From Armatimonadota bacterium (GTDB taxonomy: Bacteria; Armatimonadota; Zipacnadia; Zipacnadales; UBA5352), in the NCBI GenBank assembly GCA_034722055.1, contig JAYENL010000279.1:1-21244 (forward strand): a DNA stretch of 21,244 nt. Reading direction: 5' to 3'. Below, in pieces: positions 1-17,868 of the stretch; positions within the stretch are counted from its first letter, which is position 1; each line of letters starts with the position of its first letter. Under the pieces are notes generated by a model that had not been told where the DNA came from, did not search any database, and worked only from the letters and a program-made list of their open reading frames with translations. The position numbers and the translations under genes were made by a program.

Positions 1-6
1 TCAGGA

Positions 7-252
7 GCGGTAGCGACTGACCGCGCAGGTTCCACCCCGGCCCACTGGAGACCTTCGGTCTCACGGGCTTCCAGCCCGACCATCAGCGCAGGCGCCCCCG
101 CCTGCGCGCCGTTTAGCCCCTCGTAGAGCTATCTACCGGGCCGGGGTGGAACCTGAGGCCTATTCGCTGGGAGACTTCTACGAAGTCTCAGTCACAGGCC
201 TCACCGGGCGCTGCGCGCCCGGCGGCCCCTCCACCGGACACGGTGGGTTTTT
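7..252 (-). other. Highly structured non-coding element (branched multi-hairpin; folded ssDNA or ncRNA, family not recognised)
   Basis: Perfect 18-bp inverted repeat 26-43/138-155 encloses four hairpins (48-62, 64-78, 86-107, 123-136). Further hairpins at 154-203, 204-222 and 231-246. No credible ORF. Stems extend by G.T pairs only on the minus strand. Confidence 0.7.
231..252 (+). terminator. Possible intrinsic terminator for a plus-strand transcript entering from the left
   Basis: CCACCG-gaca-CGGTGG followed by GTTTTT. Confidence 0.45.
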
Positions 253-312
253 GAGGCAACCAAGCGGCGACTGTGCCCGTCGTGAAGGTACGCGGAATTG
301 CGGAAGTGAGCG

Positions 313-1635
313 CTAGTCGGCCGGCCTCCCGCGCAGGTCCACCGTGGCCTGCGGCGCGCCCTCCGGGCCCTCCAGGCTGGAGCGCTCCACGATGCTCACG
401 CGCACCGGCAGGCCCAGCATGGCCGCCAACTCGCGCTCCAGCTCCCCGCGTCGCTGACCGAGGGCAATCAGCCCCTGCTCCGTCCCCGCCTGCTGAGCCG
501 GCACCGCCACGCGGATCTCAACGTCGTCGAAGCGCTCCCGCCCCACGACCACCTGGTGGTCGGTGGCGGTGCCCAGGACGCTCTCCAGCGCCTCCCCGAT
601 GGCCTGCGGCTGCAGGGAGATGCCACGCACCACCAGGACGTCGTCGATACGCGTCGAGGGGCGGCTGATGCGGGCGAAGGTCCGGCCGCACTCGCACGGC
701 TCGAGGGTCATGGTGCAGATGTCCCCGGTGCGATAGCGGATGACGGGGAGGGCCTCCTTCTCCAGCGAGGTGATGACCAGCTCACCCTCGTCTCCGGGCG
801 GGACGGGCTCGAGGGTCTCGGGGTCAACGACCTCGGCCAGGAAGTGGTCCTCGCTGACGTGCAGGCCCGCGCGGGCCCCGCACTCCATGGCGAAGCCGGG
901 CCAGGCCGCGGTCCGCAGCCCGAAGGTGTCCAGCGCGGCCACGCCCAGCCGCTGCTCGAGCTCATCGCGCGTTGACTCCGGCCAGGGCTCGCCGCCGAGG
1001 AGCGCCATCTGCAGCCACAGCCCGCGCGGCCCCACCGCCAGCCGATCCAGCTCGTCGGCCAGGTGCAGGGCGTCGGAGGGCATGGCCACCAGCACCGTGG
1101 TGCGGTAGTCGTGCATCACCTGCACCTGCTTGGGGTAGTCGCCGCCGGGAACGGAGATGACCGAGGCACCGATGAGCTGAGCGCCGCGCATGAAGCCGAA
1201 GCCGGCGTCGAACATCCCGGTCTCGAAGGGGATCTGCACCACGGAGTCCTCGGTCACTCCCGCGGCGGTCATCACCCGTGCCGCCAGCTCCCACCAGTGC
1301 TGCAGGTCGTTGCGCGTGTAGGCCCTCACCGCCGGTCCGTGGGTGAGCCCCGGCGCGGTATCGATGCGCACCACCTCGCGCAGTGGCACGGCGAGGAAGC
1401 CGTAGGGGTAGCCCTCCGCCAGGTCCAGGCGGCTGGTGAGCGGCAGCCGCGCCAGGTCCTCCAGGGAGCGCACTCCGTCGGGCACGAACTCCAGGGGCGC
1501 GAAGCGCTCGCGGTAGAAGGCGATGTTGCGCATGGCGCGGTTCAGCGTCACCTGCAGCCGCTCGAGCTGAAGCTGGGTGATCTCCTCGCGGGGCACCGTC
1601 TCCTGATCGGGGTCCCAGATGCGCTGCCCAAGCAT
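313..1635 (-). CDS. Phenylacetate-CoA ligase (PaaK)-like protein with degenerate catalytic motifs
   Basis: PaaK-type segments: LQLERLQ, YPYGFLAVPLREVVRI, EC..GLH..EDHFLAEVVDPET, GELVITSLEKEALPVIRYRTGD, CECGRT. RBS GGGAGG upstream of the ATG. Confidence 0.85.
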   Translation of the reverse strand: MLGQRIWDPDQETVPREEITQLQLERLQVTLNRAMRNIAFYRERFAPLEFVPDGVRSLEDLARLPLTSRLDLAEGYPYGFLAVPLREVVRIDTAPGLTHGPAVRAYTRNDLQHWWELAARVMTAAGVTEDSVVQIPFETGMFDAGFGFMRGAQLIGASVISVPGGDYPKQVQVMHDYRTTVLVAMPSDALHLADELDRLAVGPRGLWLQMALLGGEPWPESTRDELEQRLGVAALDTFGLRTAAWPGFAMECGARAGLHVSEDHFLAEVVDPETLEPVPPGDEGELVITSLEKEALPVIRYRTGDICTMTLEPCECGRTFARISRPSTRIDDVLVVRGISLQPQAIGEALESVLGTATDHQVVVGRERFDDVEIRVAVPAQQAGTEQGLIALGQRRGELERELAAMLGLPVRVSIVERSSLEGPEGAPQATVDLRGRPAD

Positions 1636-15857: not shown

Positions 15858-15874
15858 GCTCCCGGTGAGTGGTC

Positions 15875-16528
15875 ATGGCTGAGACGGCTACAACCTGGGG
15901 CGAGCGTGCTCTCGGGGAGCTCTTCGGCTCAGAGGTGCGGGCGGCGGTGCTCTCCTGGGTCTGCGCGCATGCCGACGAGCTGATCGTGGGCGCCAAGCTG
16001 GCGCGAGAGCTGGACCTGTCCCCGAGCGCCGTCGGCGCGGAGCTGGCGCGGCTGGAGCGGCTGGGCATGCTCCAGGCACAGGAGCCGATCGGGCCCGCGA
16101 AGCCCTATCGCGTCAACGAGGACTTCCCGCTGCTGCACGGGCTGCAGTCGATGTGCCTCTACGCCACCGGCGTGGTGGCAGTGCTGCGGGAGCTGTTCGC
16201 GGATGCCGACGGCGTGGAGGTGGCGGCGATCTTCGGCTCCCTGGCCCGCGGCGACGACCGCCCCGACTCCGACGTGGACCTGCTGGTGGTGGGGGCGATC
16301 GAGGGCCGCCAACTGGCCTTGCTGGTACGCGACGCCCGTACCCGCACGGGGCGGCGGATTAATCCGGTGCGCTATTCCGTCACCGAATTCGCGGAGAAGA
16401 CGGGCGAGAAGGGTGCGTTTCTCGACCGCGTGATGTCAGGCCCCAAGACCCTTGTCAAGGGAGACACCGATGCCCTACGAAGACTTGCTCGAAGCGGGCA
16501 GGATACGGCGTCACCGGTCCACGGCTGA
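15875..16528 (+). CDS. Winged-HTH plus minimal nucleotidyltransferase (MNT), putative antitoxin
   Basis: N-terminal HTH (LARELDLSPSAVGAELARLERLGML); GS-x10-DxD motif (FGSLARGDDRPDSDVDLLVVG). Start ATG 15875 or GTG 15869. Confidence 0.88.
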   Translation: MAETATTWGERALGELFGSEVRAAVLSWVCAHADELIVGAKLARELDLSPSAVGAELARLERLGMLQAQEPIGPAKPYRVNEDFPLLHGLQSMCLYATGVVAVLRELFADADGVEVAAIFGSLARGDDRPDSDVDLLVVGAIEGRQLALLVRDARTRTGRRINPVRYSVTEFAEKTGEKGAFLDRVMSGPKTLVKGDTDALRRLARSGQDTASPVHG

Positions 16529-16910
16529 CCAGTTGATTGCTCATCTCGACATCGCCCACACGCGACTTGAAGACGCGTCCGTCGAGGGTATGTCGGCGGA
16601 AGGGACGTTCCTGTTCGCCTATGATGCGGCCCGTGCGGCCGCGGAGGCTGTCATGGCTGTGGAGGGCTATCGCGCGGCATCCGGGGCCGGCCGTCACGAG
16701 ATTGTCTTCGAGTTTCTCAGGCGAGCCGAACGGAGCCGCTGGGCTGATCTTGCTGTCGAACTCGATGAGGCGCGGGAGAAACGTAACTACGCTGAGTACG
16801 AGAGGGCCGGGCTGATCACTCGGACTGAGGCCGACGACCTACTACGGAGGGCGCGCGAGTTCGTCAATGAGGTAGCTCGCTGGCTTCATGAGCGAGGCAT
16901 AGGGAGCTGA
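16470..16910 (+). CDS. HEPN-domain protein, putative toxin
   Basis: All-helical pattern with AYDAARAAAEA, GYR..HEIVFEF, REKRNYAEY. RBS AAGGGAG before ATG 16470. Directly follows and overlaps the MNT gene. Confidence 0.82.
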   Translation: MPYEDLLEAGRIRRHRSTADQLIAHLDIAHTRLEDASVEGMSAEGTFLFAYDAARAAAEAVMAVEGYRAASGAGRHEIVFEFLRRAERSRWADLAVELDEAREKRNYAEYERAGLITRTEADDLLRRAREFVNEVARWLHERGIGS

Positions 16911-16911
16911 C

Positions 16912-17042
16912 TCCAGTGGCCGATGTTGCCGGCCCAGGGCACAGGATCGTCGCCAACCACTGGCGGCCCGGCTGGCAGTGGGCGCGCTACTGTGCGAGGG
17001 CCGCGCCGCGTGTTGCCCGAGGACCTGCCCCGCGTAGCTCAG
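16912..17042 (+). pseudogene. Decayed fragment of a moxR 5' end
   Basis: 16912-16957 matches 17865-17910 at 40/46 nt. 16984-17001 (ALLCEG) matches 17962-17979 (ALLCDG). 17010-17042 (VLPEDLPRVAQ) matches 17983-18015 (VLLEDVPGVAK). Contains a deletion and frameshifts. Confidence 0.85.
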
Positions 17043-17111
17043 GAGTTTGATGGGCGATGCCTTTGTGTACAATGGTATATGATGGTGTTTAGCATTCTGC
17101 GGAGGTGTCCG

Positions 17112-17390
17112 ATGGAGGAGCAGGACGTTCTGACCGCTCGCGAGTGCGCGGAGCTGCTGGGCTTTTCTGAGGAGCACGTGCGCGTCCTGGCCCGCACGCA
17201 GAGGGTGCCCGCAGCCAAGATAGGGGGCCGGTGGCGCTTCTCCCGGCGCCAGGTGCTGGAGTGGCTGGAGGCCAGGGCGGTGCCCGAGGCCCTCGTGGAG
17301 GAGGAGCTGGCGGCCGAGGCCGAACGGCGCCTGGCGAGCAGCGAGGGCAGGCGGCCCTTTGAGGATGCCGTGGCGGACGTGGGCGATTGA
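17112..17390 (+). CDS. Excisionase-type HTH (HTH_17-like) protein with acidic C-terminal tail, putative antitoxin
   Basis: VLTARECAELLGFSEEHVRVLAR..VPAAKIGGRWRF. RBS GGAGGT 17101-17106 before ATG 17112. Confidence 0.82.
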   Translation: MEEQDVLTARECAELLGFSEEHVRVLARTQRVPAAKIGGRWRFSRRQVLEWLEARAVPEALVEEELAAEAERRLASSEGRRPFEDAVADVGD

Positions 17391-17671
17391 GGTACGAGCT
17401 GTGGATCGAGCGGGCAGCGGAGCGGGAGCTCCAGGACCTGGAGCCGGAGCTGCGAGGCCGCGTCATCGAGCGCATCCGAGGCCTGGCGGATGATCCCCGT
17501 GGCCCGAACACGAAGGCGCTGGCCGGCGGACTGCGGGGCCTGCGGCGCCTGCGCATCGGCGACTGGCGGGTGTGCTATCAGATCGAGGAAGAGGCGGCGG
17601 CAGTGACAATCATCGAGATCGATCACCGCCAAGACATCTACAGGCGGCTCCTGCGACGCCGCCGCGGGTAG
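17387..17671 (+). CDS. relE: RelE/ParE-family toxin (RelE-like mRNA interferase)
   Basis: YELWIERAAERELQDL, LADDPR, RRLRIGDWRVCYQI, VTIIEIDHRQDIY. TTG start overlaps the upstream TGA (TTGA). Confidence 0.88.
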   Translation: MRYELWIERAAERELQDLEPELRGRVIERIRGLADDPRGPNTKALAGGLRGLRRLRIGDWRVCYQIEEEAAAVTIIEIDHRQDIYRRLLRRRRG

Positions 17672-17868
17672 TGGTCACTTGCTCAAGTCGTCAGATGTTG
17701 ATGAGGGGCGGAGGCGGCGGGGCGGTCGTTGTAGGACCGAGCAGCACACCGGGCCGCCGGCTCCGTAGCGCCTTGAGGTGCTGATCGCCATGCATGTCGC
17801 GCAGGCGCTGTTCGCATATCTGATTGTCATCTTCTGACGCCGCTCTTGCGAACGCGGAGGGAAGTCCA

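Follow-up and report, generated by a model that had tools for sequence, protein, structure and literature searches.

The Left End of the Window

The window, a stretch of 21,244 nucleotides, is contig C279 read from its first base and belongs to an Armatimonadota genome (G000) whose assembly is 92.7% complete. Its first 315 positions are followed by a host gene for a phenylacetate-CoA ligase-like (paaK-like) protein, which matched TIGR02155 with 351.8 bits, below the cut-off of 646.3. An earlier note had described positions 7–252 as a branched element built to fold as minus-strand single-stranded DNA. We found this region to be a portion of a repeated element of ~410 bases, likely selfish DNA and not a new RNA. 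The full element is a noncoding, multicopy sequence of 409 bp, and window positions 1–315 are its right part. It has two layers: an outer layer of ~30-bp IS630-type ends, and an inner layer of two inward-facing branched REPs, 80–96 nt long, with the foot GGAG (not GTAG). The features are given in Table 1.

Table 1. Features of the element and its host gene in the window
Feature	Positions	Strand	Remarks
REP unit A, 3' part	1–43	+	80 nt in full; from unit catalogue and fold
Tail of unit A (conserved); arm of 18-bp stem	26–43	+	
Nested mini-hairpin TGAGAC...GTCTCC with C-GAA-G loop	47–63	−	Inverted or absent in other copies
Nested GTAG-type REP, tag lost here	64–80	+	Tag intact in copy on C271
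Second GTAG-type REP-like hairpin	84–108	+	43 matches
Filler hairpin	123–136		Variable in alignment; 4 exact copies
REP unit B, 96 nt	138–233	−	From catalogue and folds; same type flanks C193 RAYT
TGAGAC-type module with C-GTA-G loop	170–190	−	Tip of second hairpin of unit B; 14 copies
Terminator-like hairpin and T run	230–252	+	Overlaps foot of unit B
Right linker, REP foot to transposon end	234–284		No match to IS630 elements tested
Right terminal repeat, IS630 type	285–313	−	Identity to IS630 3' ends
Duplicated TA target	314–315		With 313 forms paaK-like stop codon
Phenylacetate-CoA ligase-like host gene, 440 aa	313–1635	−	Outside element

Boundaries, Copies, and Insertion Site

A BLAST search of G000 with window positions 1–320 (E ≤ 1e-3) returned 172 pieces, and near-full copies were 94–97% identical. 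Alignment of the copies placed ~100 extra bases on the left side and the right limit at window 315–316, with flanks that diverged immediately beyond the element ends. The limits of 7–252 were therefore too narrow, since the element runs to 315 and ~100 nt to the left of the contig start. The left 100 bases were found on the end of contig C68, and window 1–29 is an exact overlap with the C68 tail. C68 was taken as the left neighbor because of synteny in the related genomes G001, G014, and G008; C252, which shares an exact 127-nt end overlap, was rejected as a repeat overlap.

A weight matrix of the ends had 148 matches in G000 and 1 in the reversed genome. Closed pairs of ends less than 600 bp apart numbered 31 (129–526 bp); they lacked a transposase gene, and 28 of the 31 had a REP foot inside. 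Contig depth summed over a full copy was ~40–50 times that of the flanks in run X1, from one study that is possibly the source. Among the joints listed (contigs, and four runs of one study), none skipped a whole copy. Elsewhere in G000 (C69:23267–28576), a left and a right end lie 5.3 kb apart; these are probably two partial copies, less probably a composite transposon. The window itself holds a lone, decayed right end of this family at 17668–17700 (+; score 23.7), which begins on the TAG stop of a ParE-like gene; a partner end or REP unit was looked for there and none was found. The adjacent region, 15869–17671 (+), contains two toxin–antitoxin-like pairs in tandem, a nucleotidyltransferase with a weak HEPN match followed by HTH_17 with ParE.

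The insertion site was read from G001, a genome of the same genus that is 83% complete and has a paaK-like orthologue 91% identical to that of the window. In G001 the paaK-like stop codon directly adjoins a convergent gene, the G000 orthologue of which ends C68. The same gene order, without the element at the junction read out, was also present in G014 and G008. The empty site of G001 has one TA, whereas in G000 a TA stands on both sides of the 409 inserted bases; this duplication was read at a single clean empty site in another species, where the base after the TA differs. The sites of the copies on C242, C314, and C4 were also element-free in G001, with flanks too diverged for a duplication to be read cleanly, and the flanks of two further copies had no match when searched in G001 (83% complete). 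The target TA is part of the paaK-like stop codon, and the last base of the element restores the stop.

The TA was retained in 62 of 95 strong ends, and CA (12) and TG (10) were found at others. A 4-bp CTAG duplication was considered and rejected, because several copies have unlike bases outside the TA at their two ends. CTAG occurs 596 times in G000 vs ~17,900 expected, and is thus ~30-fold rarer; shell ends frequently read CCAG or CTGG. We presume that this pairing of CTAG scarcity with CCAG or CTGG at the shell ends recalls very-short-patch repair.

Two Branched REPs that Probably Fold on Opposite Strands

The units begin GGAG-GGGCCG and finish AGGTTCCACCC-CGGCCC. G000 contains 172 of them, 66–129 nt in length, and TGGAG stood at the foot of 122 of 129 units. 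Units start 62–64 nt and 83–87 nt inside the two element ends, and REP doublets in this genome comprised 41 inward vs 2 outward arrangements. In the element at the window, the GGAG foot, basal arm, and C-GAA-G hairpin of unit A occupy the 37 nt left of the window, at the end of C68; its tail has 100 exact matches in G000 on either strand. Unit B is contained in the window, with its GGAG foot at 232–229, a basal stem formed by 228–223 with 143–138, a C-GCA-G hairpin at 204–222, a long hairpin at 156–201, and the conserved tail at 138–155. The sequence GGAGGGGCCG occurs 673 times in G000, 559 of them closed by CGGCCC within 130 nt.

The coordinates, loops, and mismatches given in the earlier note were all confirmed in the sequence. 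Positions 26–43 and 138–155 are perfectly complementary (18 of 18), the minus-strand loops C-GAA-G (54–56), T-GGA-A (70–72), C-GTA-G (179–181), and C-GCA-G (212–214) are present, and the pairs 44/137, 162/195, and 203/223 are A.C on the plus strand and G.T on the minus strand. The A.C was kept across aligned copies in 34 of 35 at 203/223, 23 of 32 at 44/137, and only 11 of 33 at 162/195. The interpretation drawn from these features was supported in part. The 18-bp stem was not supported as the organizing helix; its arms are the tails of two inverted REPs, and it competes with the basal stem of each. Two of the four GNA loops lie in TGAGAC modules, one in a GTAG REP, and one in unit B proper. 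The T-GGA-A loop falls on the untagged strand of the GTAG-type REP that contains it. Folding of the minus strand alone was likewise not supported: foot and GNA loop are found on the plus strand in the left REP and on the minus strand in the right REP.

Positions 1–260 were compared with 200 shuffles on both strands, with DNA and RNA parameters. The native sequence surpassed all 200 as DNA (minus strand −86.3, z −8.3; plus strand −82.5, z −7.9) and as RNA (plus strand −150.1, z −7.9; minus strand −156.5, z −6.8). Over the entire 415-nt stretch the strands were nearly equal as DNA (plus −131.0, minus −133.9). Single units gave a strand preference: the GGAG strand folded better in 134 of 155 units as DNA and in 94 of 155 as RNA.

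The loops were similarly strand-specific. GC-GNA-GC was present in 122 of 155 distinct units on the GGAG strand and in 6 on the opposite strand, with a free middle base (C 59, A 48, T 37, G 19), and the tandem GA motif was present in 87 of the same 155 units on the GGAG strand vs 1 on the opposite one. With stems of at least 4 bp there were 60 GNA and 16 TNC loops, vs 6.8 and 3.8 in shuffled sequences. When 3-bp stems were allowed, TNC loops outnumbered GNA loops on the GGAG strand (136 vs 61) because of one invariant small tail hairpin.

The basal stem formed in 115 of 155 predicted folds; it is invariant within G000 and covaries, with changes on both sides, between RAYT loci. In 59 units of 77 nt, compensatory double changes were present at 9 of 20 pairs, and in 17 units of 79 nt at 2 of 27; these counts ignore relatedness, and the 59-row set includes some A-type rows. 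In the 59-row set 1152 of 1180 cells paired (shuffles 1074, maximum 1089), and G.T cells numbered 40 vs 5 A.C.

In DNA, d(GNA) loops with a closing C:G pair have very high stability (PMC3201870), and RAYTs recognize single-stranded REPs strand-specifically (PMC8266576). Because the C-GNA-G loops are on each REP's own strand, the left REP would fold on the plus strand and the right REP on the minus strand. From the loop strand bias, the fold preference, the covariation, and the known strand-specificity of RAYTs, we conclude that the reading of a structure shaped for single-stranded DNA holds, but for each unit separately, with the two units on opposite strands.

Nested Modules and a Terminator-like Site

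The modules at 47–63, 64–80, 84–108, and 170–190 were added, inverted, doubled, or missing across copies. TGAGAC...GTCTCC modules number 109 in G000, where they have varied loops and lie inside other repeats, and 49 have the sequence of 47–63. The family of 64–80 has 96 copies, 86 of them preceded by NTAG, of which 82 read CGTAG. The tag of 84–108 is ATCAG in the subfamily of the window and AGTAG in 11 other copies. In most B units the place of 170–190 is taken by a shorter GNA loop, and the 77-nt B units lack the module. Neither a crude motif scan near copies nor tblastn with the six Y1 proteins revealed a RAYT that could serve the nested GTAG REPs or the TGAGAC modules.

At the counterpart of the proposed 231–252 terminator in a full copy, a terminator-like stem and T run were called. 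The T5 run was kept in 7 of 30 aligned copies, and the site is restricted to the youngest subfamily. The same count speaks against a reverse-transcribed product that ends at this terminator. The failure to match a known RNA was reproduced, with no Rfam hit at gathering score for the window and none at E ≤ 1 for the full copy.

A RAYT Gene Flanked by the Same REPs

Units of types A and B point inward on both sides of a Y1 gene on contig C193 of G000. The encoded protein of 172 aa matched the RAYT model NF047646 with 92.6 bits (cut-off 80). In 20 aligned RAYT proteins H75, H77, Y136, and P141 were invariant; N140 was present in at least 90% and is D in the C193 protein, which has Y---DP instead of the class 2 signature Y---NP. 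The residues named for foot recognition in RAYTs (W94, Q95, E/D100, and R104) are present in it as W115, Q116, D121, and R125. Of the options in the earlier note, an HUH recognition end was supported. An enzyme to the left of the window was not supported: the neighboring protein on that side, 833 aa long, had no Pfam match, the RAYT lies on C193, and no YxDD motif of a reverse transcriptase was seen in the long frames of the last 6.8 kb of C68.

RAYT homologues were present in 15 of 17 other genomes of the family. GGAG-footed hairpins, ranging from plain stems to branched forms, stood at 27 of 34 RAYT loci, and 7 of the 34 had the subtype and tail described here; plain GGAG hairpins occur beside sister RAYTs. 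The RAYTs with this subtype cluster (3 changes vs a shuffled mean of 6.4; 0 of 500) in a test that omits L041, which has a stop in its match. A single origin was not adopted, since this clustering falls short of one clade. G000 has five related RAYTs, 33–46% identical, each with its own GGAG REP subtype, and a sixth, more distant Y1 gene (C324) with another type of repeat. Long BIME-like tandem arrays of GGAG REPs lie beside the RAYTs L049 (G008:C59) and L046 (G002:C85).

Among the matches listed, four Armatimonadota RAYT loci (L104, L105, L108, and L109) had GTAG feet. In named genomes, at least 4 of 80 listed loci contained GGAGGGGC[CT]G anywhere, and GGAG plus a stem was near the gene in 4 of 24 checked, among the matches listed. 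GGAG plus a stem also stood beside the RAYTs L152, L153, and L161 in two Chloroflexota genomes and one unclassified bacterium (among the matches listed); the foot may therefore not be confined to the lineage of the window.

IS630-type Ends and a Second Type of Shell

Complete IS630 elements of ~1.15 kb in relatives (L062 and L063) have CTAGTGCT ends, and the transposase of L062 contains Pfam domains DDE_3 and HTH_32. The right end in the window was identical at 24 of 32 positions to the 3' end of L065 and at 22 of 32 to that of L062, and 289–309 reads Y-A-E-L-R-K-stop, which resembles the end of an IS630 transposase gene. Against the linker profiles the IS630 ends scored 20.6 and 12.8 bits, and the profiles aligned to IS630 termini solely over positions 1–34 (13 IS630 loci tested). 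The match to these 13 loci comprised ~30 terminal bases, and the interior was not found to be a deletion product of a parent IS.

No intact transposase with matching ends was found in the G000 assembly (92.7% complete). Remnants of the matching type were present as fragments on C123, C134, and C82; C137 carries a complete IS630, but with different ends. That element (L007, G000:C137:4414–5641) has CTAG ends and two frames whose overlap lies at an A/G run, an arrangement like that of a programmed frameshift. Other arrangements included an IS630 with different ends that starts exactly where the left end of a shell has its TA (L008, G000:C226:5036–6251), an IS630 3' end duplicated in tandem over 16 bases (L065, G015:C243), and an IS630 remnant that abuts the right end of a shell (L068, G001:C291).

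Of the 172 units, 112 were in IS630-type shells (>8 bits vs the linkers; the linker profiles had been trained on 75 of these units), 21 lay behind a second type of end, 36 had no recognized shell, and 3 were too close to a contig end. The second end type was present in 11 of 18 family genomes, and in G016 it bounds a 462-aa Tn5-like transposase; because its autonomous partner is Tn5-like, the idea that it is another IS630 was rejected. A match to an IS50-like transposase was not found in the G000 assembly. IS50 makes a 9-bp target duplication. Seven of 18 closed short copies of the second shell had 7–9 of 9 flanking bases duplicated in register, compared with 0 of 31 IS630-type copies, and 16 of the 18 had a REP foot inside. 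Second shells carry different GGAG REP subtypes in G003, G010, G013, and G015.

Within the order, 9 of 67 genomes had matches to IS630-type ends, and such shells hold REP doublets in G001 and G002. IS630-type MITEs of another family, 110 bp long, had one GGAG hairpin each at 7 of 8 loci inspected in G031, G050, and G054. A REP was looked for in the IS630-type shells L224, L226, and L230, and none was seen. We also considered whether the RAYT gene is packaged in IS630 ends. This was rejected: the C193 spacers, which look similar to shell linkers by eye, did not score above 0.5 bits, compared with shuffle maxima of 8.0 and 3.4.

Origin and Spread of the Element

With the anatomy, boundaries, copies, empty site, target duplications, RAYT association, strand bias, and compensatory changes demonstrated, we consider it highly probable that the 409-bp element consists of IS630-type ends around an inward pair of branched GGAG REPs and was pasted into place by an IS630 transposase acting in trans. 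Each REP would fold on its GGAG strand as single-stranded DNA, with a foot, a 6-bp basal stem, two hairpins, and a tail, and would be a putative substrate of the C193 RAYT, recognized in single-stranded form. The REP doublet would have come between two IS630 ends, and the smaller REP modules would have joined later. The composite may then have spread as double-stranded DNA by cut-and-paste, with DDE transposases supplied in trans; such spread would explain most copies of this REP in G000. A separate capture of the same kind would have taken place with IS50-type ends. Insertion driven by the RAYT, repair following the excision of an IS, and deletion between neighboring elements would all be fitting routes of capture. 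Because 133 of the 172 REP copies lie in the ends of two unrelated DDE families, each with its own target duplication, DDE enzymes likely did most of the copying of this REP.

It is conceivable, and we put it forward with some doubt, that the RAYT itself places GGAG REPs between the ends of unrelated DDE ISs in this order of bacteria and so creates MITEs. The doublets would afterwards owe their spread to transposases borrowed from IS630 and IS50, and two enzymes would act on each copy, the first on its single-stranded and the second on its double-stranded form. The proposal draws on the presence of REPs in both types of shell, in different subtypes and in several genera, and on the 110-bp MITEs with one GGAG hairpin. 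If true, it would join REPINs and MITEs, at present regarded as separate classes, and give REPINs a route of spread without the RAYT.

An element pasted by DDE transposases can be set against a large REPIN moved whole by the RAYT through single-stranded DNA, its IS-like ends being passive, captured flank. In its favor, doublets mostly face inward, the genome has a RAYT that appears intact whereas an intact IS630 of the matching type is missing from the assembly, and 36 of the 172 units have no recognized shell. However, a REPIN would not account for copies that end at TA or CTAG, 62–87 nt outside the REP feet, or for the TA duplication at insertion; the shells of a second IS family carry their own 9-bp duplication, and the spacers beside the RAYT gene do not resemble the shell profiles in score. 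We regard such a REPIN as improbable. We think it quite improbable, too, that the host retains the element chiefly for regulation at the 3' ends of genes, as a terminator or mRNA stabilizer. The terminator-like site and the position of the window copy between convergent genes fit that role, and 19 of 55 TAG/TAA ends are the stop of a frame of at least 150 codons, compared with 20% of control TAGs. Yet G001 has an empty site, the two genes are neighbors in G014 and G008 with no element at the junction read out, few copies keep the T run, and flank orientations are mixed (8 of 30 convergent); moreover, TA-rich targets such as CTAG are so scarce that this alone could favor stop codons.

The remaining possibilities were suggested by the strong folding and the DNA-type loops: a DNA made by reverse transcription, retron-like or otherwise, a single-strand origin, or a structured RNA of a new kind served by its own enzyme nearby. 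Set against these are the lack of an Rfam match, a left neighbor without a Pfam match or a visible YxDD motif, and dozens of dispersed copies with unrelated flanks. Absence from the orthologous site largely refutes them, and we give them almost no credence. The element is likely selfish and is not a new RNA. Its REPs widen the known range to a GGAG foot with a branched body, in which the conserved foot, basal stem, and tail point to recognition elements.

Comparison with Known Systems

The inner layer is like the REP/REPIN/BIME systems with RAYTs of E. coli, Pseudomonas, and Stenotrophomonas (PMC2817692, PMC6006769, PMC8266576) in its tetranucleotide foot and stem, in the inverted copies that flank an HUH/Y1 gene, in the inverted doublets dispersed between genes, and in the foot-recognition residues, which are present in the C193 protein. 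It differs in the foot, GGAG instead of GT[AG]G; in its branched body of 66–129 nt instead of a single hairpin of 20–40 nt; and in its C-GNA-G loops, tandem GA motifs, and location mostly inside transposon ends. Canonical RAYT-linked feet are GT[AG]G, and those of class 3 are CnGA (PMC6006769); two consensus rows in the Quentin table start with GGAG, and neither is the REP family of the window. A report on REPs of Armatimonadota was not found in the accessible literature, of which figures or supplements may hold GGAG examples. The TIRtrons, or TIRYT elements (PMC3733652), are also similar, with long inverted repeats beside a tyrosine transposase gene and dispersed families. Their GGGGWSAS motif is absent here, where units read GGGGCCGC, and the proteins here lack the long C-terminal extension of subclass 2.1.

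How REPs spread is described as still open in PMC8266576, and REPINs are described as distinct from MITEs and as copied by the RAYT (bioRxiv 10.1101/2021.07.10.451892). The papers surveyed (including PMC3184786, PMC3189936, PMC3337134, and PMC4690160) document ISs that insert into REPs; a report of REP doublets carried inside MITEs was not found in the accessible, mainly nonsubscription literature.

The outer layer is like the IS630-derived MITEs Correia and RUP (PMC2817692): short, noncoding, present in many copies, with IS630-type ends, a TA target, and a CTAG preference at that target. TA duplication by the IS630 family has been demonstrated for ISY100 (PMC2170065), and the CTAG preference is named in the reference list of that paper. 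The element differs from these MITEs in that ~30 terminal bases match the IS and the interior is the REP doublet of another system, with nested REPs. The second shell resembles miniature elements of the IS50/Tn5 type (IS4 family) in its Tn5-like IS ends and 9-bp duplications; it is not the shell of the window, yet it carries the same GGAG REP doublets. The element is thus an IS630-type MITE that carries an unusual REP doublet, and both kinds of component are already known.
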